NCBI GenBank assembly: GCA_963693365.1
Contig: CAVNZM010000085.1
Span: 1 to 11,492, forward strand
Direction of reading: 5' to 3'
Length of the DNA: 11,492 nt
DNA from: Amoebidium appalachense
Taxonomy: Eukaryota > Protista > Ichthyosporea
Below, piece after piece: positions 1 through 11,492 of the stretch; the stretch's first letter is position 1; each line of letters begins with the position of its first letter. The notes beneath the pieces were generated by a model. The model saw only the letters and a program-made list of their open reading frames with translations, was not told where the DNA came from and did not search any database. The position numbers and the translations under genes are program-made.

Positions 1-136
1 GTTTATTTCGTGCATGAACTTCTCCCGGAAGCACATCAAACAACTTCCAAGCCCTCCCATGCTAACACCATCCCATCAAACCAACCCCCATCTAGCTCAT
101 GCTAACACCCCCATCAACCCCCCCCCCCTCAGCCCC

Positions 137-1007
137 TCACTCAAGCTCCGCAACAACCTTCATCACCCAATCATACCCCTCCCGCAGGCGCTGCTCAATC
201 ATCTCCATGTCCTGAACAAAATAGTGGTTGCCCTCATCCCACCAAACGGGAACCTCCACCGCCCACTCATCGATCGATGCCGCAAGAGCAGAGTCTCTCT
301 CCCTCCGCCCCCCACACATCGTCCGAGTCGATACGTTTCCCGGGAGGGTACTTCGGATCCCTCTGCACTCGATCAAACAGAAATATCTCGCACTGCCGGA
401 GCACGTTGCCACTTGCAAGCTCCCCGGGTGTGAGCGCAAAGGGGACGAGGTTTGGACGGGGAGAACCGGGGGGCGGGGAACGTAGGCGAACTGGCCGGGC
501 CCCCTCCCCGCCCTGGCGGCGGTGGACACGTTCGGCAATCCGATGGCGCAGCGCTTGCTTGTTGCGCTCCACAGCATCCTCCGCCGACCAAAAACCCACA
601 TTATGATACCCGTCCTTAACAGCCCGAGCCGCCTCTGCCATGTCGTGGAGCGCCTGCGCCACCGCCCGTGCCTTAGCCGCGCCCACGACGTTGCGCCCAG
701 GCTGCTGCAGGTACTGGCGCAGACCCGGCACGACGGACTGTGCAGCCACGGCGCACCCCCCGAACTCCGTGACCAACGGACGCACCTTGTCACGCGCGGG
801 CCCGACGGCGTTCTCTGCGGCGACGAGGGCAAGGATGGCGTCCTGGCAGTGGTTTAATTCCCTGCACACCTTCACATGCGAGGGGATCTGGTCGCTGTGC
901 ATGTCAGCGACACAAGCGCGGCACTTGACCATGTATTTGTCCTTGGTGTTCTTAGTGAAAAGGTGATCGGTCAGCCATTTGTAGCTGCGCTTGCCTACTT
1001 GTTCCAT
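137..1007 (-). CDS. Hypothetical protein with N-terminal C2HC zinc finger; probably frameshifted near 308-313 (intact ORF 267..1007, 246 aa; about 289 aa if repaired)
   Basis: ATG at 1007 in ACC-ATG-G context. Contains C-x2-C-x11-H-x3-C (CRAC...HVKVC). Removing one G from the G6 run (C6 at 308-313) joins it to a protein-like tail (RRERDSALAASIDEWAVEVPVWWDEG...VVAELE*) ending at 137. Minus-strand AATAAA at 2-7. Confidence 0.6.
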
Positions 1008-1194
1008 GGTGTGTGTGTGTAGAAATGGGGGTGCAAAGCGAAAAATCAGTAAAAGGCGACCTAACAAGCGACTTCAAAGCCTTTGATGTTGACACTACAG
1101 AAGGTGTGTGAAAGTGACACCCTATCAGCTGTGCCGTGCCCTTAGAAGCCAATTCCCAACTGATGCTGACGAAATGATATCCAGTCACGCGTTT

Positions 1195-1536
1195 GATTGG
1201 GAGAATGCTTTCAGATCCAGATCACCAAACTGCACGATTGGCTGCTGGGGATTGGATCACACCCAATTCAAGAACCAATCAGATCCCGCGAAGAGCAGGC
1301 AATGCCAGTGCTTCAAGATTTTTCAATGACAGCTGATGCCTTTTTCTCTTCTATCCCTTAGAACCAAACATAAGAATAAAATCAAACGTTTTATACCTAA
1401 TTTCATATTCAAGGTAGTTTTATAAACAATTCGGTCACATTTCTAATAGAAATCGCGAAGAAATAGTCCTATCAACGATTACAAACAGATTCTGAAACCT
1501 TGGTCAGGATCTTGAACGCTTTCGACCAATCAGATC
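1195..1536. promoter_or_regulatory. CCAAT-box cluster in divergent intergenic region
   Basis: CCAATCAGATC at 1275-1285 and 1526-1536; reverse GATTGG at 1195, 1236 and 1250; AT-rich tract at about 1320-1480 between divergent genes. Confidence 0.55.
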
Positions 1537-1630
1537 GAATAGCGGGGTAGCCAACTGCGCGCTGCTTTGGCCGTTTATTGGCACACCTGGCGCTGCTTTG
1601 GAACGAAGTTGTGGTTCCGCGTTGCCTGTT

Positions 1631-1705
1631 CCGGGGCCTGGGGGGGGCGCCTGTGGCACACAGACCCGTGAGACCACTGTGCCATCCGTGCCTCGCGTGC
1701 CCCTC
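1631..1705. repeat. Degenerate copy of dispersed G-rich/GTGCCTCGC intergenic repeat
   Basis: ccggggcctggggggggcgcctgtggcacac...ctgtgcc...cgtgcctcgcgtgcc is colinear with 3794-3903. Confidence 0.7.
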
Positions 1706-1766
1706 ATGCCCCCAGACCCCGCTCCTAGGAAAAAGCAATCGGCGAACAGGGTCCACCCCCGGCACC

Positions 1767-1902
1767 TGTTCTCCAAGGATCCGGGAGACATGGTTGGGGA
1801 TGCCATGGTGTTCTCTTGGGTTCCGGGAGACATGGGGGGGACCGGCGATGCTGTTCTCTAGCAAATCACGGGCCAAACGTTCATGGGCACGGCCGTGTTC
1901 TC
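1767..1902. repeat. Degenerate 42-44 bp tandem array
   Basis: TGTTCTC at 1767, 1809, 1852, 1896; TCCGGGAGACATGG at 1780-1793 and 1822-1835. Confidence 0.7.
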
Positions 1903-2057
1903 TCTGGTTTGTGGAGAAATCGGTGGACTGGGTAGGGGGCGGGGGCAGGAGAACAGGGTGGTGAACGCGCAGGTGGATATGGGCCGGGTTGTTGCCGTGT
2001 GACGTAAAGGTCGATTTTGATAGTTTGTGGTACTTTATCTGTCGGTTCAACACCGTG

Positions 2058-2855
2058 ATGTCTCAACTCAGCGAAGGGGCTGTTGTGCGCTGCCTCCACC
2101 TGGTGCGCACGTTTTTGGATAACGATAAGAGCAGCGCTTTGTTCATGCAGGGATACACAACGCACCACCTAGTGTTATACATCAAGCACCTGATGGAATT
2201 GGAAATAAACGAAAAGGTCCCAGTCGAACATATTGAGAGGCTGATCTCCTGCCCCGATGAAACGTCCGAACACACGCGCTCATCGAAGAAACTGAAAAAC
2301 GTCGTTATAGCAGTTCGCGAGCTGTTCCCCACACCGTGGGTTTGGAAGGGGATTGATCCAGGCACGTTTACGGTGGAGCTCGCTAGGGAGGTCCATCGCA
2401 AGGTCATGGACGGGCTGCTCGATAGCGCTGGACGGTATCGGGTGCGCTTTGCGCTTCCCGCAGGCTGCAGTCATCAGTACCTTGCACCGTTCAAGATCGA
2501 AGAGGCTCTCAAGCGTCTGTTCGAAAGGACACGCACCGAACTCCAAGACTGCAATGACGTTCTCGGTGCCATACAGGTGGCCGCCCGTTTCCTCGGGGAG
2601 TTCCTCTATATCCACCCGTTCAGCAACGGCAACGGGCGCGTCGCCCGTCTGTTGGTCAGCGTGCTGATATCGCCCTATATTGCCGTTCCCCTCTCGTTGT
2701 ACACAGACCGCAGCTCCCGCGAGCGCTACCACTCGCTGCTGCTGGCCGCGCAGAGCCAGCCGCCCCCCCACGACTACTCCGAGCTGGCGGCCTTCGTGCT
2801 GGACTGCGCAAGGGCAAACCTGGTCTCGGTGTGCAACGCCCTGGATTTGGAATGA
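2058..2855 (+). CDS. Fic (Fido) domain protein, putative AMP/NMP transferase, 265 aa
   Basis: Signature HPFSNGNGRVAR at 2613-2648, preceded by typical Fic elements (REVHRKVMDGL, AGRYR, FLYIHPF). First in-frame ATG is at 2058. Confidence 0.93.
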   Translation: MSQLSEGAVVRCLHLVRTFLDNDKSSALFMQGYTTHHLVLYIKHLMELEINEKVPVEHIERLISCPDETSEHTRSSKKLKNVVIAVRELFPTPWVWKGIDPGTFTVELAREVHRKVMDGLLDSAGRYRVRFALPAGCSHQYLAPFKIEEALKRLFERTRTELQDCNDVLGAIQVAARFLGEFLYIHPFSNGNGRVARLLVSVLISPYIAVPLSLYTDRSSRERYHSLLLAAQSQPPPHDYSELAAFVLDCARANLVSVCNALDLE

Positions 2856-3763
2856 AGCCGTCGACTCTTATCGCGCCCTACACCAACATGGACACACCCT
2901 CCCAAGCCAGGACACGTGTGCGGATCCTGCTGCCCGGGGGCGGCGTCAAGGGCTGCTTCCAAGTCGGGTTCATGCAGGGGATGCTCGCGTCGGGGCTGTA
3001 CGAGGTCGACAGGGTGTACGGCACGTCCGTCGGCGCGCTGGTGGCGCCGTTCGTGGTTGCCGACCGCCTGGACGACCTGGCGCGCGAGCTGGGGACGCTG
3101 AAGTGCGTGGAGGACATTGTGGAACCGTGGGGCGGCGCAATGGCGCTGCTTCCGAAAAGCTGGAGGACGGTTGTGGGGTCATTGCTGTACGGGGCGGCGT
3201 ACAGCCGCTTCACCCTGCAGGAGCGTGCGGCGGCGCTTCTGGAGGGCATCGACGCGGACATCTACACGCGCTGCCACTGCGTTGCCTGGGACTTCCTCAA
3301 CAAGAAGGAGCGGTGGTTCACAGGGCCCGAGTACCAGGTCGGCATGCGTGCGTCTTCGGCCCTTCCACTCGCGGTCCCCCCCGTCGAGTACGACGGCACC
3401 GTGTTTCTGGACGGCGGGGTCTCTGAGCTGGTGCCCCTCACCAAGGCACTCGAGGATGCCGCAGATGGGTTCGACGGCATCTACGTCACGGTGCTGTGCG
3501 ACTCGCTGGCGCACTGCCCCGCAGAATCCGTGCCAAAAACGGGCATGGAGCTCTGCTATGCTCTGCAGCGTGACTCGGGCACCGAGCTAGCGGCCACCGA
3601 GTTCGCCAACCTCCGCACCCGCCTCGGAGACCGCCTCGTGGTGGTCGCTCCAGAGCGGAGGCTGTTTGCGTCGCCCATGGACGTCGACCCCGGGAAGGTC
3701 GCGCGGGCGCTTGCGGATGGCCGCACGGCGTTTGCTGCCTGGGCCGCCGCGGCACGCCAATAA
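2852..3763 (+). CDS. Patatin-like phospholipase (303 aa; alternative start 2888, 291 aa)
   Basis: Glycine-rich GGGVKG, nucleophile elbow GTSVG (3020-3034), ASSALP and catalytic DGG (3410-3418). Stop TAA lies within AATAAA (3759-3764). Confidence 0.93.
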   Translation: MKPSTLIAPYTNMDTPSQARTRVRILLPGGGVKGCFQVGFMQGMLASGLYEVDRVYGTSVGALVAPFVVADRLDDLARELGTLKCVEDIVEPWGGAMALLPKSWRTVVGSLLYGAAYSRFTLQERAAALLEGIDADIYTRCHCVAWDFLNKKERWFTGPEYQVGMRASSALPLAVPPVEYDGTVFLDGGVSELVPLTKALEDAADGFDGIYVTVLCDSLAHCPAESVPKTGMELCYALQRDSGTELAATEFANLRTRLGDRLVVVAPERRLFASPMDVDPGKVARALADGRTAFAAWAAAARQ

Positions 3764-3800
3764 ACCCGGGTCCAGTCCATATCTGCCACCCATCCGGGCC

Positions 3801-3905
3801 TGGGTGGCTGGGGGTGGCTGGGGGGGGCTGGAGGGGGCTGGGAGGGGCTCCTGTGGCGCACGTGCCACGCGTGCCTCCTGTGCCTCGCGTGCCTCGCGTG
3901 CCTCA
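3801..3905. repeat. Compound minisatellite: about 5 x 10-bp GGGGTGGCTG followed by 5 x 9-bp CGTGCCTCG
   Basis: 10-mers at 3801-3850; 9-mers at 3861, 3870, 3879, 3888, 3897. Lies between convergent stop codons. Confidence 0.9.
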
Positions 3906-3907
3906 CG

Positions 3908-4684
3908 CTAGGTTTGGGTCGGGCTTTCTGGTTCTGTGGTGTGGCGCTGCATACGGGTGTATCGGAGTTTGTAGCAATTCATAACCGATGAACGATCGGA
4001 TTTCCGGGGTGGGTGTCCCGGCCATGTAGTGATTCGCTTCATGCGCACCGATTTCTGCTTTCCGAGGACAGAACTGGCATACACGCCAAAAGTTCGAATC
4101 GGGAGCGAGGCGTTCTGATTGCAGTGGCTTGGCAGCCACAAACTATATAGGTTGAAAAGGCCAGCTGAAGATATGTAGCACCCGGATGTGATGTGACAGC
4201 CCTTGGGCAACCATTCAGGATTTTTGCTCAGCTCATCCAGGAATTCTGAGACGCACTTCCGGGTGCACACGTGTTCGCCATTGACATCGTCCCAGCTGAC
4301 AACCTCGTCCTCGCTCACATCTTGGGATTCTTGCTCCGGTGGCCTCTTGGGCTCTGTTTGGGGGAGAGGCGCCCACACCGTTTGCAGCGTGTCCGATTCG
4401 ACTGTGGCCCTAATTCCCAAAATCGTCATCGTTTCGATCGCCACTTTCAAGCAATCTAGGGACGCAATATCGAACAGATGTACCCGAGGTCGATGGTTCG
4501 GACAGTAGGCTTGATAGCACAGGACCTGCCCAACGGCGGATTTCCATTTAGAAGCGCGCTTGACTTCGATGACTTCCGTGGCCGTCAGCAGGTCGATTCG
4601 TCCTGCGGGCGTGCGTACCTCAATGGTTCCACCTTCGAGCTTGGCCAGCCTATCCCTGACATATGACTCGTCGTAGGTAGCCAT
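3908..4684 (-). CDS. PD-(D/E)XK-family nuclease domain fused to a C-terminal winged-helix-like domain, 258 aa
   Basis: N-terminus E..VRDRLA..EGG.IEV.TPAGRIDLLT..EVIEVK....WK.AVGQVLCY gives a D..ExK catalytic pattern plus QxxxY. An acidic/proline linker follows, then a C-terminus resembling that of the neighbouring helicase. Confidence 0.8.
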   Translation of the reverse strand: MATYDESYVRDRLAKLEGGTIEVRTPAGRIDLLTATEVIEVKRASKWKSAVGQVLCYQAYCPNHRPRVHLFDIASLDCLKVAIETMTILGIRATVESDTLQTVWAPLPQTEPKRPPEQESQDVSEDEVVSWDDVNGEHVCTRKCVSEFLDELSKNPEWLPKGCHITSGCYISSAGLFNLYSLWLPSHCNQNASLPIRTFGVYASSVLGKQKSVRMKRITTWPGHPPRKSDRSSVMNCYKLRYTRMQRHTTEPESPTQT

Positions 4685-4737
4685 CACTTACAACACAAGA
4701 AAATAAAAATCACCCCCAGTCGATTGTTGGTTGCCAG

Positions 4738-4806
4738 TGGGTGGCTGGGGGTGGCTGGGAGGGGCCTGTGTGTACTGGGGGTGGCTGGGAGGGGCCTGCG
4801 GAGGGG
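4738..4806. repeat. G-rich direct repeats (24 bp x2, 30-bp period)
   Basis: CTGGGGGTGGCTGGGAGGGGCCTG at 4745-4768 and 4775-4798; 4738-4759 is identical to 3801-3822. Confidence 0.9.
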
Positions 4807-5030
4807 TCGAAGTCGGTCATATTCACAATACTGGAAGAAAATAAATGTCCGCCCATGGGCCTCTTGTTACAGCTGTATTGCTACGGAATGGGGAGAAAAT
4901 GAGTGCGGGTGTCGCTTAAGTACACGGCGGCCACAATGCTACCGCTGAAGGGCTGTGAGGGGCTGTGGGGCATGCGTGGCTCGCCCGCCCCGTGCCGCCG
5001 GCGTGCCCGCCGCGTCTCGCCGGCCGTGCA

Positions 5031-5067
5031 TGCCTCGCGTGCCCCCTCCCAGCCACCCAAGCCCCCC
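5031..5067. repeat. GTGCCTCGC-type unit plus inverted copy of the G-rich repeat
   Basis: TGCCTCGCGTGCC at 5031-5043; 5043-5058 is the exact reverse complement of GGGTGGCTGGGAGGGG (4749-4764, 4779-4794). Confidence 0.85.
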
Positions 5068-5088
5068 GCGGTGGCCCAGGACGCAAGG

Positions 5089-5097
5089 TATATATAA
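5089..5097 (+). promoter_or_regulatory. TATA box upstream of helicase
   Basis: TATATATAA at the GC-rich to AT-rich transition, 79 nt before ATG 5168. Confidence 0.5.
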
Positions 5098-5167
5098 TCC
5101 CGCATATGCGAAAATGGCTCAGTCTGCCCCCGGTCAGCGCAAAATATTATCTAGGCCACTAGTAACG

Positions 5168-6670
5168 ATGTCGTCTATATTTCACCTGTTGGAGATCCCT
5201 CCCATCTCCGAAGAGACATTGTTTCTGAGATTCGAGGACTGCAGCCCAGAACCACCCTTTGGACTGAGCTTCAAGCCACGCACATGCCAGAGCATTTCAT
5301 GGACTTATGAGAATTGCATCCGTTTTTTGCAGAGCAATGTGGCTTTTGTCGAGTGTGGTTCTCAATACCTGCTCAAGAACTATGACCACAAGACCGGGCG
5401 GCACGTCATTGAGCTGCATACACCCAAAAGCGCAAGAGAATGTCTCTCTAAGTACCTCTTCAGAATGGAATTTTTTGAGCGCAATCGGCCCATCACGCGT
5501 GTCTACAAGGGTACCTGGTTCATGGAGAGTGACCACATACTGCAATATTCGCGCTTTGTGTTTGACCCAGCAGACCCGGATCCACGGACGGGGAAGCGTC
5601 GTGCACAAAATGTCATGAGGCAAGGCCGTCCTTTTAACATTTTTCGTGGACTCAAGATAGTGCACAACCCCACACGCCCTCTCGCGCAATCGGCAACCAG
5701 TATGTTTTTTGACCATCTTCGCATGTTGTGCAACTACGACGAGAAAGCTTACCTCTACACACGTCACTGGTTGGCCCAGCTCTTTCAGTACCCTGACATC
5801 AAACCAGGAGTGGCTCTCGTCTTCCGGTCAGTCCAAGGTGTGGGCAAGAACGTGTTCTTTGATGTCCTGGGTGATATCATCGGACGCGACTACTATGTGT
5901 CCGTCACAAACAAAAAGCACGTTGGTGGGAACTTCAATGCCCATCTCAACAACCGACTGCTCATCGTGTGCGATGAGGTGTTTTGGCATGGTAATGTTGA
6001 TATCATCAACCAGATGAAGGCCCGTGTTACGGAAACCACAAGCCTTATGGAAAAGAAGGGGTGTGACATCATTACTGTGGAGAGTTGTGAACGCTATGTG
6101 ATTCTCAGCAACGAGTCACACCCACTGAATCTAGAGGAGGGTGACCGACGATGGGCCTGTTTTGAATCTTCGTCGGAGAGGAAGGGGCAGTTTGCATACT
6201 TTGCGGAATTCAAGGAACGACACTCCAATCCATCTGTTCTCCAGGCAATTTTGGACGAGCTGATGGCTGAAGTGAATGTCCCCCAGCGTATGCCAACCCC
6301 TCCAACAACCGAACTTCGTTCACGGTTGACAGATCTTGGACGGCCAGACGAACTGCAGTTTCTACGCGACCTTGTGACGGGGGACAACGGATGTGAGGAA
6401 TGGCCCAGACCTGTTGATGGCCAACGGTTCACCAGCACCGACCTGTTTAACTACTTTCGTCTGTGGCACGAGCGGAACGCAACCGGGCGCAGTCAGAGAC
6501 CAAGCCAAAAGCTGTTTGGTAGTGCGCTTCGAGCTATTTTGGGACAACCAGTGGCTACCAAGGTCAATGGAGCATCTCGGTACTGTTATGTTTTGTCGTT
6601 TGAGAGGGTTGGTCTGTCGAAAGATGTTTGTCAGGCCATGGAGCAGGACCGTCTTGGTTCGCTGGAATAG
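5168..6670 (+). CDS. Superfamily 3 (D5-like / DUF5906-type) helicase without a recognisable primase domain, 500 aa (alternative start 5114)
   Basis: FNIFRG pre-motif, WLAQLFQYPDIKPGVALVF, Walker A SVQGVGKN (about 5828-5851), FNAHL, Walker B LLIVCDE, EKKG.D, motif C ILSN, arginine finger DRR, C-terminal wHTH-like region (STDLFNYFRLW...FGSAL). Confidence 0.9.
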   Translation: MSSIFHLLEIPPISEETLFLRFEDCSPEPPFGLSFKPRTCQSISWTYENCIRFLQSNVAFVECGSQYLLKNYDHKTGRHVIELHTPKSARECLSKYLFRMEFFERNRPITRVYKGTWFMESDHILQYSRFVFDPADPDPRTGKRRAQNVMRQGRPFNIFRGLKIVHNPTRPLAQSATSMFFDHLRMLCNYDEKAYLYTRHWLAQLFQYPDIKPGVALVFRSVQGVGKNVFFDVLGDIIGRDYYVSVTNKKHVGGNFNAHLNNRLLIVCDEVFWHGNVDIINQMKARVTETTSLMEKKGCDIITVESCERYVILSNESHPLNLEEGDRRWACFESSSERKGQFAYFAEFKERHSNPSVLQAILDELMAEVNVPQRMPTPPTTELRSRLTDLGRPDELQFLRDLVTGDNGCEEWPRPVDGQRFTSTDLFNYFRLWHERNATGRSQRPSQKLFGSALRAILGQPVATKVNGASRYCYVLSFERVGLSKDVCQAMEQDRLGSLE

Positions 6671-6761
6671 CTGCGGGATCTTACGACAAGTAGCTACCCA
6701 GACACATTCCAAAGTGGTGTTTTATTATAGATTTTGAGTTGGGTTGATGATTTTACTTAGT

Positions 6762-6862
6762 GGTAGTCGGGTCGTTGGGTGGTAACTTACTTTTAGAAAA
6801 AAATAAAAAGGTGAAAAATATTCCCAGTGCAAAGGCTAGCTACTACCGACGACCCGACTACC
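6762..6862. repeat. Inverted repeat around an AT-rich spacer containing AATAAA
   Basis: GGTAGTCGGGTCGT 6762-6775 pairs perfectly with 6849-6862, with imperfect inward extension (to 6787 and 6838). AATAAA at 6802-6807. Confidence 0.8.
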
Positions 6863-6889
6863 GGGTTTCAGTAACCTCTTATTTTTTTG

Positions 6890-7477
6890 ATGCCATACAT
6901 GAATATGCAAGACTATATATGTGCGATATGTAATAAAACATTTGCAACAAAGCAGAACCTCCAACGTCACGCCACATGTCATACCGGTGAAAAACCATTT
7001 TCCTGTACATGGCCTGGTTGTGCAGTACGGTGCACACAGCAGGTTGGCCTGGACGCACACATGACAACTCACACTGGAGTAAAAAAATTTGAATGCAACT
7101 ACACCGGATGCACCTACAGGGCTCCGACATCTGGACGACTTCTGCGACATAAAAGAAGACACACGGGTGAACGCCCATACGCTTGCGAACACGAGGGGTG
7201 TGGCAGGCGCTTTTCATATCGGGGGGCACTTCTTATGCACTTACGAACGCACTATCCAATACAACAGCTAATGTGCAAGGCTATTGGATGTGAAGCAACC
7301 TTCAAAACTGCCAACGCGCTCAAATTTCATAACCGCATCCATACCGGTCAGCGCTCCTACATATGCGCTGAGGAAGGGTGCTCAAAGGCCTTCTCATGGC
7401 GTAGTGGGCTGTGGCGACATCGAAAGGAGGTGCATAAACACAAACAACAAGATCAACCGGGCAACCAACTCGTGTGA
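6890..7477 (+). CDS. C2H2 (Kruppel-type) zinc-finger protein, six fingers, 195 aa
   Basis: Six C-x2/4-C-x12-H-x3/4-H units with HTGEKPF, HTGVKKF, HTGERPY and HTGQRSY linkers. AATAAA at 7500-7505. Confidence 0.95.
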   Translation: MPYMNMQDYICAICNKTFATKQNLQRHATCHTGEKPFSCTWPGCAVRCTQQVGLDAHMTTHTGVKKFECNYTGCTYRAPTSGRLLRHKRRHTGERPYACEHEGCGRRFSYRGALLMHLRTHYPIQQLMCKAIGCEATFKTANALKFHNRIHTGQRSYICAEEGCSKAFSWRSGLWRHRKEVHKHKQQDQPGNQLV

Positions 7478-7515
7478 AGTCCGCCTGGTGCGGCCCAGGA
7501 ATAAAAATTACAAAC

Positions 7516-7519
<4 letters not shown>

Positions 7520-7547
<28 letters not shown>
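7520..7547. repeat. C28 homopolymer
   Basis: 28 consecutive C between convergent gene ends. Confidence 0.9.
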
Positions 7548-7801
7548 TACCACCTGTACACCAGCACGCCGGCGAGCAGCACGAGCAGCACCATGCATGC
7601 AAGCGCTATGCCCCTCCACATCGAAGCCCTCTTGAGCTGTGCATCATGGTCGTCCAATGAAGTGCCCATGTAGAGCATGAAGCGCGTGCTGTTGTCGATG
7701 TTCAGGTGGTACTCGTGCGGGTCGGCGGCAATGTCATCCCTGCGCAACCACGAGTTACTCGGGTTGTCAAATCTCAGGTTTGCAATGTTCGGAGAAGTCA
7801 T
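7547..7801 (-). CDS. Small protein with C-terminal transmembrane helix (84 aa; start uncertain, could be 7870 or 7972)
   Basis: MTSPNIANLRF...WRGIALACMVLLVLLAGVLVYRW*: a hydrophobic segment of about 20 aa at the extreme C-terminus, with G/C-rich third positions. Confidence 0.6.
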
Positions 7802-8098
7802 ACCTTCCGAAGAGATAGTTTGGAGCGCCCCCTCCCCAGCAATCGGGGAGCACACACAGACATTATGCATCGCAGTGCTAATGGAACCTAAAAACCGCTG
7901 GGACGTAGGGCGCGCCAAGACGGAGGACGCACTGCTACAATGATCTTTGGCAACCTTGTTTTTCTTTGTCATATATATGGTCAATTTGATAGCTGTTCGA
8001 TCTTGTGTCCAGACCGGTGGTTGTAAAAGGCAACAACAACAACCCACTGCAAGTGTCACAAAGGGCACGCTGTGGGTGCACTAACACAAACAACAAGA

Positions 8099-8170
8099 CC
8101 CCCCCCCCTGAGCGCCAGCACGCGGCAAGCAGCACGAGCAGCACCATGCATGCAAGCGCTACGGTCCACA
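8099..8170 (-). pseudogene. Duplicated 3' fragment of the transmembrane-protein gene
   Basis: 8115-8161 matches 7561-7608 with one substitution and a 1-bp deletion; both copies are adjacent to a poly-C run. Confidence 0.7.
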
Positions 8171-8204
8171 ACACAGGTGTGGAAGAGGAAGTGGCAATTT
8201 TTAT

Positions 8205-8635
8205 TTACTCCTCGTGTTCAGCCCGGCTGCGCTTCTCGGTGGGCACCGAAGTGTCCTCGGGCGACCGCGCGCGCTTCTTCTCGGGGGGCTTCTTGTGGTG
8301 GCGCTCCTCCTCGGAGCTCAAGATGCGAATGGGGCGCTCCTCGGTGGGGGACTCCTCGGCGGAGGTCTCGGGGTCGCTGAGGTTCTTCAGGCTCCTCCAT
8401 GTCATACGGTACAGGCTCACGCTGGTCTTGAGGCGCTTGTACTTCTTGTGCAGCAACTTGTACTTGAGCTGCATCTCCCGCCGCTGGCGCGCGCACGGTA
8501 GCGGTCACGCTTTGCCTCCTCGTACAGGTACTGCTGCCATTCGGGAGGCCACGTGGCAAATGACCCTGGGGGCCGTGGACTGGCAGGCTGCCCGGCTGGG
8601 TCAGGGCCGGCCTTTGCAGATGGTGTGCCGGACAT
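8205..8635 (-). CDS. Hypothetical protein (basic coiled-coil-like core, charged tail, NLS-like PPEKKRAR) split by a frameshift at (GC)4, 8487-8494; about 142 aa if repaired
   Basis: ORF from ATG 8635 (…WQQYLYEEAKRDRYRAR) joins QRREMQLKYKLLHKKYKRLK… if one GC unit is removed. The TAA stop overlaps a minus-strand AATAAA. Confidence 0.6.
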
Positions 8636-8728
8636 TGTCGGTGAAGAGAAACAGGAAGAGTGAAAAGTGTCAGCATAGCGCTGAGTCGCGGCTTTAATTG
8701 CCTGCCAGGCTGACAGCTATCGCGTTTT

Positions 8729-8959
8729 GATTGGATGGACATGATATATCTGATCGAGTCAAAATTGACCAATTACAAGAGACGATCGGAATTTATATGT
8801 ACTATCCAATCGCGACTGACCATTCAGCGCGTGAGACGTAATCTATCAATAAGATGATCTCCAATCAGATCGCGCCGTGGGCATGCCATACCAGTGCTTT
8901 ACTGACCGGAGAGCCACATATAAAAGCGCTAGGTCGAGGCTGATCCCTGTCACTTTCAC
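8729..8959. promoter_or_regulatory. Divergent promoter region with CCAAT boxes, TATA box and Inr-like element
   Basis: GATTGG 8729, CCAAT 8806, CCAATCAGATC 8861-8871, TATAAAAGCG 8919-8928, and TCACTTT at 8950-8956 about 30 nt downstream of the TATA box. Confidence 0.6.
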
Positions 8960-8995
8960 TATCCTCTCATTCGGGCGCGCGCTCTCACTACAGAA

Positions 8996-10368
8996 ATGTT
9001 CCACACAAGTTTTCGTCCACGCACTGGAATTGACAATCCAGTTAAACGGTGCGGGCTTTTACCATTCGCCGTCCGCCTCCATTACTCGGATGCCAAGGAT
9101 CAGTATGACGCCATTGTCTATGCGCTGAACGACAAATTTCAGCTCGAAAAGACCGTTGTCAGGGCCCACATGCTGGACATTGGAAGAGACGGCGACCTCC
9201 GCATCTTCGACACAAAGGAGCTCTTTGATGATTTCCGTTCAGCCTTTGAGAATGAGATGTCCTTTGTGCCGACACGGTTGCAAACCCTCCTGGGGCAGGA
9301 GGGGCTTGAGGAGGCTGCGCGACACCTCCTGCTTAAGCATAGGCACTCTCTCGCATTCCCGTTCTACACCGCCTTCCAGCGCTACGTCCTAGGGGCGGCG
9401 GACTATGACGCGTTTTATGAGGGCAAAATCTGCGACGGGGTTGGCAGCTTTTTCCTGCTGACGGTGAGGGCGCTGTGCAAGCGGTCCGGTCTGACAGCCC
9501 GTCCCATCGCATACTTCAGCCAACAGCCAGTCGATTCCCCCTTGGGTGTGTTTACATCCAGCGTTGGGGAAGATGCCATGGACGACGTTGTGTTCTGTGA
9601 ATTGGCTGAACGTGCCATCCAGCACTTTGTGGACAAGTTACCGTCCACGTCGTGTCTCGCCAAGGAGCCCCCTACCCACCCCCCCGAGCCGATAGATTCT
9701 TTGTCCAAACACCAGATCGTCGTCCACACCTTCGATGCCCACTTGCATTTGCAATCGGACCCCGCTCTGCGACCTGATGCTGAAAGTTCTCCACGACAGA
9801 GACCTCCGTGTCTTTTCCAACAGGGAGCGCTACATGAAATGGGACGCGGTCCTGGCGGAGGAGGTGCGTATTATAGTTGAACGGACACAGAGGGGGGACC
9901 CAACGGTGACGAGGGCCGACCGCAATAAGGCTGTGTACTTCACGGGGGTCAGGCACTTCGCGGTCTTCCAGCGCTACGTGGTGCGGGGAGCCGGACTACA
10001 CTGCCGCGCACGCAGGCAACCTCAGCAGGGGAGCCGAAACCGTCATGAAGATGGCGATGCGGGTACTGTGCGAGTCTGCCGGCCTCACCCCATGCACCAT
10101 GGACGAAATGGCTCGGCGGCGTGCGAGGATGGCAAGCCCTAACTATTGGCTCGCGCTGGACATCGAGCAACTGTGTCTGATTGACTGGTGCAACCGGGCC
10201 ATCAAGCACTTCGTCGATCAGCTGCCGTCGTCGGTGTGTCTGGCCTGCGGCGCTACCCGTTGCACCAAGAAGTGCTCAGCCTGCAGGCGCGCATACTACT
10301 GCAATGAGGCCTGCCAGATTACGCATTGGCATGAGCACAGGGAGGAATGCCAGAGGCAGGACCATTAG
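8996..10368 (+). pseudogene. Protein with two tandem copies of an unknown domain of roughly 180-200 aa plus a C-terminal MYND zinc finger; two +1 frameshifts (about 9752 and 9981); about 456 aa if repaired
   Basis: MYND motif CLAC...KKCSACRRAYYCNEACQITHWHEHREEC. Internal repeat pairs: RDGDLRIF/HDRDLRVF, FQRYVLGAADY/FQRYV-GEPDY, RALCKRSGLT/RVLCESAGLT, RAIQHFVDKLPSTSCLA/RAIKHFVDQLPSSVCLA, spread over three frames. Confidence 0.8.
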
Positions 10369-10469
10369 AGGATAGAAAACTCATGGGTTGGACTCGTACA
10401 TTGGTGTGATCTCGCAGGACCATTAGAGGATAGAAAACTCATGGGTTGGACTCGTACATTGGTGTGATC
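10356..10469. repeat. Perfect 56-bp direct repeat x2 (58-bp period)
   Basis: 10356-10411 equals 10414-10469 and includes the MYND gene stop codon. Confidence 0.95.
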
Positions 10470-10514
10470 CTGGGTTTTGTTATGCACATTGTTTTGTATT
10501 AAAAAACTTCTATG

Positions 10515-10582
10515 ATAAAATGTGGGGATTTTTGACATCAGGCAAAATAAAATGTGGGGATTTTTCACATCAGAAAAATAAA
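10515..10582. repeat. Imperfect 32-bp tandem repeat x2 carrying polyadenylation signals
   Basis: ATAAAATGTGGGGATTTTT(G/C)ACATCAG at 10515 and 10547; AATAAA at 10546-10551 and 10577-10582. Confidence 0.85.
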
Positions 10583-10590
10583 CATAAACA

Positions 10591-11060
10591 TCAGTGCACC
10601 TTGTGGCGCTTTACTCGCACGCTCTGTCGGAGCACCAGTCTCCGGTATTTCGGCATGAACTCATCGGCATACACGTACTTTTTTATACGCCTCTGACCTC
10701 TCTTTTTCGACCGACCTCTTCGGTGTGACATGCCCCTCCCCCGGAAAATGTCCGCATCCGACTCCAAAAGCACCCTGTCTAGTGAAACCACTTTCTCCGC
10801 TTGCACCCAGCCGCGCACAGGTTGCTGGTCCACGCACCCTCCTCGAGCTCGAGGGACACCTTGCGCCACCCGGATTCTGCGCGCTTGATCTCGCACGCCA
10901 CCACAATGTCTCCCGGTCGCACACCTGCGGTCCACATGCTTGTGCAACAGCGCACGCTCAGCACCTCACACACCGTGTCGGGCCCACGTACACACACGCC
11001 GAAACACGCAAGCGCGCACTCGTGGTCATGCAGCGCCTCGAGAACTGGCACCTTGCGAAT
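10591..11060 (-). pseudogene. Possible frameshifted gene with SH3-like motifs and a basic C-terminal tail; start uncertain
   Basis: One frame gives EALHDHE...VRPGDIVV...SGWRKVSL; the adjacent frame continues PVRGWVQAEKVVSL...RRGRSKKRGQRRIKK. Junction near 10830-10850. Confidence 0.3.
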
Positions 11061-11095
11061 GAGTGTGCGCCGACGCAGGCGGGGACTCTGGAGGG

Positions 11096-11105
11096 TATAA
11101 AAGCG
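11096..11105 (+). promoter_or_regulatory. TATA box
   Basis: TATAAAAGCG, identical to 8919-8928, 59 nt upstream of ATG 11155. Confidence 0.6.
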
Positions 11106-11154
11106 TGTGTCTGACACGGGGAGCTGCCAGTCTGAATCTGCACCAGAACCGACC

Positions 11155-11492
11155 ATGGCTTTTGAGCAGGACCTGAAGCTATTTGTCAATCGGCTGTCGC
11201 TGCTTGTATCCAGCATGACGTTCGACTCGAACGGCGCCGGCAGGGTGGCGAGACGGCCGCTACAGCTCCACGCAAGACTCGGCAAGGGCGACACGATGCT
11301 GTCGGACACGATGCTGCCGCTGCAGTCGGTGGAAACGTCGAACAGGACTGGACTCAACCACCTGGTGTTTTCGACGTGTCCACTGGAGGGGGCCGGGGAT
11401 GCGGTGACCATCGACCTGGATTGGGGCAAGTCGTTTCGGCTGACCTGGGAGCGCTGGGACACCACGCTGTCGCTGCTGCCACCGAGGGATCC
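11155..11492 (+). CDS. Hypothetical protein, truncated by the window edge (not in the ORF track)
   Basis: ACC-ATG-G start after a TATA box; frame stays open for 112 codons to the end (MAFEQDLKLFVNRLSLLVSSMTFDSNG...DWGKSFRLTWERWDTTLSLLPPRD). Confidence 0.7.
   Translation, partial: MAFEQDLKLFVNRLSLLVSSMTFDSNGAGRVARRPLQLHARLGKGDTMLSDTMLPLQSVETSNRTGLNHLVFSTCPLEGAGDAVTIDLDWGKSFRLTWERWDTTLSLLPPRD

Follow-up and report, generated by a model that had tools for sequence, protein, structure and literature searches.

A predicted PD-(D/E)XK-like nuclease of Amoebidium appalachense with a helicase-type tail, from a lineage that seems to take such tails repeatedly

Introduction

The winged helix of Rep, the superfamily 3 (SF3) helicase of the Staphylococcus aureus pathogenicity islands (SaPIs), recognises iterons, and the SaPI origin, with opposed iterons, lies directly downstream of the gene (PMC9371898; papers given by PMC number are cited for the part of their text that was available). 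Here we describe an 11,492-nucleotide stretch of the ichthyosporean Amoebidium appalachense (assembly GCA_963693365.1, contig CAVNZM010000085.1, positions 1 to 11,492, forward strand; the whole stretch is called the window), in which a predicted PD-(D/E)XK-like nuclease is encoded next to an SF3 helicase. The window helicase resembles SaPI Rep, phage P4 alpha and poxvirus D5 (Z 17-19) in that its SF3 ring is followed by a C-terminal domain. Its order of Head, SF3 ATPase and tail is that of the C-terminal region of the NrS-1 polymerase (PDB 6K9C, 6LRB), and the region at 6762..6862 of the window is laid out like the SaPI origin.

SF3 helicases (S3H) without a primase are known from Mavirus, ALM, YSLV3/4 and some polinton-like viruses (PLVs) (PMC3671162, PMC12220804), and a nuclease gene, possibly optional, can adjoin a replication gene, the PLV helicase (PMC12220804). 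A previous reading of the window, made from the sequence alone (the sequence-only reading), had proposed that the two proteins share a C-terminal domain which the nuclease captured from the helicase. We report that helicase-type tails recur in relatives of the nuclease, and we propose that they may aim it at the origin repeats of related elements.

Results

The nuclease and the helicase of the window have related tails

The two divergently transcribed open reading frames (ORFs) and their parts are as follows.

4684..3908, minus strand: putative nuclease-winged helix-turn-helix (wHTH) fusion gene, ORF of 258 aa; two-domain make-up common to 7 of the best 150 relatives
4388..4672, minus strand: predicted PD-(D/E)XK-type nuclease domain, residues 5-99, with E6, D31, E40-x-K42 and Q53xxxY57
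4256..4387, minus strand: acidic linker, rich in proline; a second gene version diverges at 4389 (residue 99)
3947..4255, minus strand: nuclease tail, homologous by sequence to the helicase-family tail, likely a winged helix
5114..6670, plus strand: primase-less NrS-1/DUF5906 SF3 helicase, 518 aa, with Head-like domain, ATPase and tail
6347..6613, plus strand: helicase tail (about residues 412-500); its wing is shorter than that of the nuclease tail

Compared directly, the two tails resemble one another weakly (BLASTP E 0.008, 12 of 43 positions identical), and their Smith-Waterman score of 48 was matched by one of 3000 shuffles. A hidden Markov model (HMM) of four helicase tails scored the nuclease tail at 36.7 bits (best shuffle 6.3; none of 3000 as high), and hhalign of the tails gave a probability of 94.8 with E 5.4e-8. 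Moreover, both tails were detected by a profile of five tails from outside the window, that of the nuclease at E 2.9e-15 and that of the helicase at E 2.7e-15. We conclude from these sequence comparisons that the tails of the window nuclease and helicase are homologous. The motif pairs that the sequence-only reading had aligned by eye are recovered: EFLDEL/QFLRDL, the G pair and FGVYASSVLG/FGSALRAILG in the pairwise alignment, and CYKLRY/CYVLSF in the multiple alignment, where the match spans a gap in the helicase tail, which lacks about 15 wing residues present in the nuclease tail.

The shared C-terminal domain is likely a winged helix of the Pox_D5/P4 type, in agreement with that reading. 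In the ESM Atlas, the nuclease tail lies nearest to Pox_D5 clusters (0.95; 173-184 shared features); 20 of 30 matches are Pox_D5, the family being found on 14-64% of their members. The model of the nuclease tail (predicted local distance difference test, pLDDT, 39) matched many winged-helix proteins at Z 4.4-5.8, a level at which the tool rates matches as common, among them the P4 origin-binding domain (Z 4.5, root-mean-square deviation 2.2, 59 residues, rank 37). Neither window protein gave a Pfam winged-helix match, and one of five relatives did so at E 0.039.

The helicase has no primase

The window helicase is an SF3 helicase of the NrS-1/DUF5906 type and lacks a primase. DUF5906 was found at E 1e-17 (65.3 bits, against a curated Pfam cut-off of 27.6), and the helicase alignment contains the motifs GKN, DE, SNE and RR, which we take to be Walker A, Walker B, motif C and the arginine finger, respectively. 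The helicase model (mean pLDDT 64.6) matched the C-terminal region of NrS-1 (Foldseek E 3e-15; VIA Z 21.8 over 351 residues), as did the sequence (E 5e-22). Residues 63-476 of the model correspond to residues 305-698 of NrS-1, that is, to the part past the primase-polymerase, which bears out the earlier remark that an N-terminal primase could not be recognised. Only about 60 residues stand ahead of the Head-like domain, with no primase domain among them; PHROG primase profiles matched only from position 450 onward, and the N-terminus was placed in the ESM Atlas with unnamed clusters and with D5_N at 0.89, with no primase. Six of the seven close helicase relatives have 461-521 aa with DUF5906 alone, so that lacking a primase is characteristic of the family. 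The family helicase P0187 has about 190 additional N-terminal residues, in which there is no second Pfam domain.

Helicase-type tails recur among relatives of the nuclease

The family to which the N-terminal 99 residues of the nuclease belong is large: it has 1548 clusters at E 0.001 or below. The putative catalytic motif E...D-x(8)-E-x-K and the QxxxY helix, a pattern that we take to be PD-(D/E)XK-like, are intact in the window nuclease; E40 and K42 are found in 152 of 152 rows of the alignment, and D31, Q53 and Y57 in 151. By profile, the domain matched no Pfam family and no PDB entry, and its relatives showed weak matches to NucS (E 0.0034, P0033) and Cas4b (E 0.05). The nuclease model, folded without an alignment, was poor (pLDDT 39), and a BFVD search with it returned nothing at E 0.001.

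Of the best 150 relatives of the nuclease, 125 are without a Pfam family, and in the other 25 Pfam recognises a DNA-binding domain (12 KilA-N, 9 helix-turn-helix (HTH) types, 2 Bro-N and 2 Rha). With an HMM made solely from helicase tails, the tail was detected in seven of the 150 (P0030, P0031, P0032, P0033, P0034, P0044 and P0086; E 1.8e-7 or better), so that the nuclease-wHTH fusion for which the sequence-only reading had suggested looking does recur. Both domain orders occur, P0032 and P0086 having the tail first and the nuclease last. One member of a fusion cluster is the Daphnia sinensis hypothetical protein KAI9549582.1, encoded on a contig of 183 kb; the others are ENA or Logan records.

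The nuclease tails match those of different helicases

A single clade of nuclease tails was rejected by the approximately unbiased (AU) test, both in a tree of 17 rows (p-AU 0.0008) and in one of 13 rows from which five long branches (P0183, P0006, P0044, P0007 and P0008) had been removed (p-AU 2e-69). In the trees P0183, a longer protein of the same cluster, stood in for P0034, and P0086 was absent from the first; the group of all nuclease tails was set before the tree was made, yet after the identities had been seen. Individual nuclease tails are matched by helicase tails at 65% (P0032/P0184), 50% (P0033/P0187) and 47% identity (P0031/P0186), as against 13-41% among the nuclease tails themselves, and the first two pairs are sisters in the tail tree (support 91/92 and 94/96). 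Over the 14 positions of the putative recognition helix the three pairs share 11, 10 and 9 residues, respectively; unmatched rows share 2-8, which come from conserved core positions. The tail of helicase P0184 is nearer to that of nuclease P0032 than to that of helicase P0004, with which it is 50% identical in the tail and 87% in the core; helicase tails thus diverge faster than cores.

The nuclease domains of P0032 and P0086 are 80% identical, their tails 15%. On a 151-row tree, built from few columns, the eight fusions group together by their nuclease domains (3 changes, where shuffling gives 7.9; 0 of 500 shuffles as low), and all eight fall in a 13-row group (SH-like approximate likelihood ratio test, SH-aLRT, 89), five members of which have no helicase-type tail.

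The window stretch is present, whole or in part, in 20 public runs, and contigs from four of these were compared. In runs X1 and X2, which come from one sample, a second version of the nuclease gene departs from the window at 4389 (residue 99), with a loose end of at least 255 letters; one contig of the same sample matches 4424-4717 with a single difference, and a piece from X5 ends at 4390. The second version is less than 80% alike, and its first nine codons in frame (judged by eye) are free of stops, six of them matching the window linker, suggesting that it is a diverged C-terminal half. Helicase variants in the runs are about 89% identical to the window and silent at 45 of 50 listed positions, including 11 of the 12 in the tail, the 50 being the helicase positions among the best-supported ones shown rather than the total of differences. 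A one-base difference at 5042, seen in three of the four runs, interrupts an apparent 5' extension of the helicase frame.

The tails that form no clade, the matched pairs, the clustered nuclease domains, the contrast between P0032 and P0086 and the second version of the gene together fit one resident nuclease lineage that changes its tails. That tail capture took place, as the sequence-only reading had proposed for a PD-(D/E)XK nuclease, is very probable. As far as sequences can tell, one nuclease lineage seems to take its tails repeatedly from the DUF5906 helicase family.

In the window itself, the two tails are a poor match. They are 19% identical, share 4 of the 14 positions of the putative recognition helix, and a sister relation between them was rejected (p-AU 0.016); the nuclease tail scores 145 against helicase P0186 and 48 against the adjoining helicase. 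These results speak against the further proposal that the two window proteins form one cooperating module directed at the same sites.

Linkage of nuclease and helicase genes

P0030 and helicase P0186 are each encoded on a Logan contig of 7624 bases, the one such coincidence among 12 Logan nuclease-helicase pairs, and are probably a second linked pair on the same contig. None of the loci L001-L046, obtained by scans of viral, metagenome and genome contigs, has both genes together; these scans returned only distant helicases (24-37% identity) or loci with the nuclease domain alone. The nuclease had no match in phage records, and plasmids gave distant helicases only. A contig of X2 joins 3819 to 5022 and so omits the nuclease between its flanking repeats; this one weak joint, with a short side of 24 letters, suggests that copies of the element without the nuclease gene exist.

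Candidate DNA sites

Three regions contain short repeats.

3802..3904, no strand assigned: GC-rich short repeats, arrays of a 10-mer and a 9-mer, downstream of the nuclease
4739..5075, no strand assigned: intergenic region of the divergent genes, with candidate binding sites: the same 10-mer three times on the plus strand (4740, 4750, 4780) and once on the minus strand (5048), on either side of an AT-richer stretch
6762..6862, no strand assigned: candidate origin directly downstream of the helicase, with two 9-mers on either side of a core of 20% GC, the sides pointing in opposite directions

The 10-mer occurs seven times at no more than one mismatch, each time flanking the nuclease, where 1.4 occurrences are expected; both the 10-mer and the 9-mer patterns were picked post hoc, after inspection of the data. 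The layout at 6762..6862 could be that of an origin and equally that of a terminator hairpin. Near it, variant copies have different GT-rich and AC-rich arms (6752, 6833), and at 6645-6777 one joint substitutes the end of the helicase gene. The origin repeats may thus vary between copies of the element.

The surrounding element

Many variant versions are superimposed on the window in the contigs of the four runs, from which we infer that the stretch is a multi-copy, variable DNA element. None of the listed runs that contain it is an RNA run. The other compact ORFs encode Fic (1989-2855), patatin (2831-3763), a C2H2 zinc-finger protein (6887-7477) and a MYND-finger protein. The 11.5 kb contain no capsid, packaging ATPase, pPolB, polymerase or integrase gene (14 ORFs against Pfam, 12 against PHROGs), and the window is part of an element; a search of Rfam gave no match.

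The Fic gene (HPFxxGNGR motif) and the patatin gene, at 1989-3763, overlap by four bases in an operon-like manner. The same 10-base CCAAT-box-like motif stands upstream of three gene groups (1275, 1526, 8861), hinting at host-type transcription. Joints seen in single contigs, weak because of their short sides, omit the Fic-patatin block (1632-3796), the Fic-patatin-nuclease block (1629-4738) and the MYND block (7934-10604); the first two sit at GC-rich repeats, and gene cassettes between such repeats may come and go. At 8996-10368, three overlapping ORFs, the last part of which is the MYND finger, look like one gene, broken or misassembled, and an exact 56-base duplication follows them at 10356-10469. 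Relative to all four runs, the window has single-base indels at 301, 467, 500 and 8481, in the minus-strand regions 267-1067 and 8205-8640; these suggest assembly errors in the window, and the ORFs there may therefore be intact in the element. The ORFs at 11155-11492 and 7547-7976 have no family match, are joined more directly in one contig and are possible core genes of the element.

Discussion

We propose that the window encodes a retargetable nuclease, aimed by way of a copied tail at the origin repeats of related elements, a reading to which we give a probability of roughly 40%. A PD-(D/E)XK-like nuclease lineage, resident in a multi-copy element family, would copy the tails of various helicases of that family, likely repeatedly. 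If helicase tails read origin repeats, by analogy with SaPI Rep, a nuclease with the tail of a given helicase would bind origins of that helicase's type; the copied winged helix would find origin-like repeats of related elements, and the nuclease would cut there. A tail unlike that of the neighbouring helicase would spare the element's own origin, and through such sparing the gene would act as a weapon of interference or homing type between sister elements. The turnover of tails would then track that of origins. The full form of this scheme, in which each copy cuts a rival's origin type and spares its own, and helicase tails and origin repeats are thereby driven into an arms race, we regard as rather unlikely.

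Several points weigh against this proposal. Cleavage and DNA binding by the window proteins are predicted only, and for NrS-1, the closest solved helicase, recognition of an origin by the tail has yet to be addressed (PMC9371898). In the tail tree, 10 of 14 inner branches are left open, and the helix count is noisy, since P0031 shares 8 of 14 positions with the window helicase. A clade uniting P0001 and P0030 with the window helicase, which would imply an older common origin, was not rejected (p 0.17); hence simple drift since an old capture may account for the mismatch in the window. Furthermore, the best match of P0030 among ten helicases is P0186 (131 against 111), its probable contig mate.

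The last two points also fit a cooperative arrangement in which nuclease and helicase bind the same origin or terminal repeats, nick or resolve and unwind them, and have their tails kept in step by gene conversion. The two genes are divergent neighbours in the window, P0030 and P0186 are probably a second linked pair, oppositely oriented short repeats flank both genes, and this explanation would gain if the matched pairs proved to be neighbours in their elements. The window tails, however, differ in sequence, in the putative recognition helix and in the length of the wing, and their sisterhood was rejected. Moreover, the helicase variants keep their tail while the nuclease has a second, diverged C-terminal version, and the weak joint in X2 omits the nuclease altogether. 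We consider such cooperation unlikely, slightly more so than another explanation, itself less likely than not, in which the tail is a generic DNA-binding add-on. The nuclease family would swap such domains, and the tail of a neighbouring helicase would have been acquired by recombination and serve affinity or regulation rather than an aimed cut. The 25 relatives with other Pfam DNA-binding domains and the five members of the 13-row group without a helicase-type tail are in keeping with this, as are the tails of P0086, P0183 and P0044, which reach no more than 30% identity to any known helicase, and the weaker DNA binding of a tail-less NrS-1 mutant (PMC7102993). Against an add-on of any convenient kind, the tails of all eight sampled fusions come from a single helicase family, in which they represent two clades or more, and the matched pairs preserve the putative recognition helix well. 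Chance or convergent likeness of two helical tails, to which the weak direct score and the lack of a Pfam winged-helix match might point, can be set aside as extremely improbable; it is ruled out by the independent profile (E 3e-15), the shuffle test (0 of 3000) and the nuclease-helicase tail identities of up to 65% in relatives.

Were the retargeting proposal true, selfish DNA would be aiming a nuclease, without a guide RNA, by copying the protein domain with which a rival finds its origin. The matched tails would also bear on whether NrS-1/DUF5906 tails read origins, a question that PMC9371898 leaves open, and as a series of natural domain swaps they would serve the study of winged-helix specificity. 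On a duller reading, there still remain a nuclease domain family without a name and a fusion that we have not found described.

Each part of the locus has a precedent: S3H without a primase, origin-binding winged helices, domain-shuffling nucleases, and nucleases beside PLV helicases (PMC12220804). In the literature searched, older domain-shuffling papers and supplements lying outside its scope, we found no description of a nuclease fused to a repeatedly captured helicase tail, and the available parts of PMC11071308, PMC8502044 and PMC11244446 contain no gene-level match. The window helicase differs from NrS-1 in lacking the primase-polymerase and in sharing its tail with a separate nuclease, which the available text of PMC7102993 does not describe. 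It differs from SaPI Rep, P4 alpha and D5 in having no fused primase, and its origin binding is putative, by analogy with them. Helicase-only S3H are common to it and to Mavirus, ALM, YSLV3/4 and PLVs, but virus marker genes were not found in the 11.5 kb window. The proteins that shuffle KilA-N, Bro-N or HTH domains have the same nuclease domain as the window, in 25 of the 150 relatives; here, the partner domain seems to come from the element family's own replicative helicase, and more than once. Finally, free-standing nucleases that cut a related genome are known, T4 SegF being one; the window domain is predicted to be of the PD-(D/E)XK rather than the GIY-YIG or HNH type, and its targeting domain appears to be copied from a helicase.

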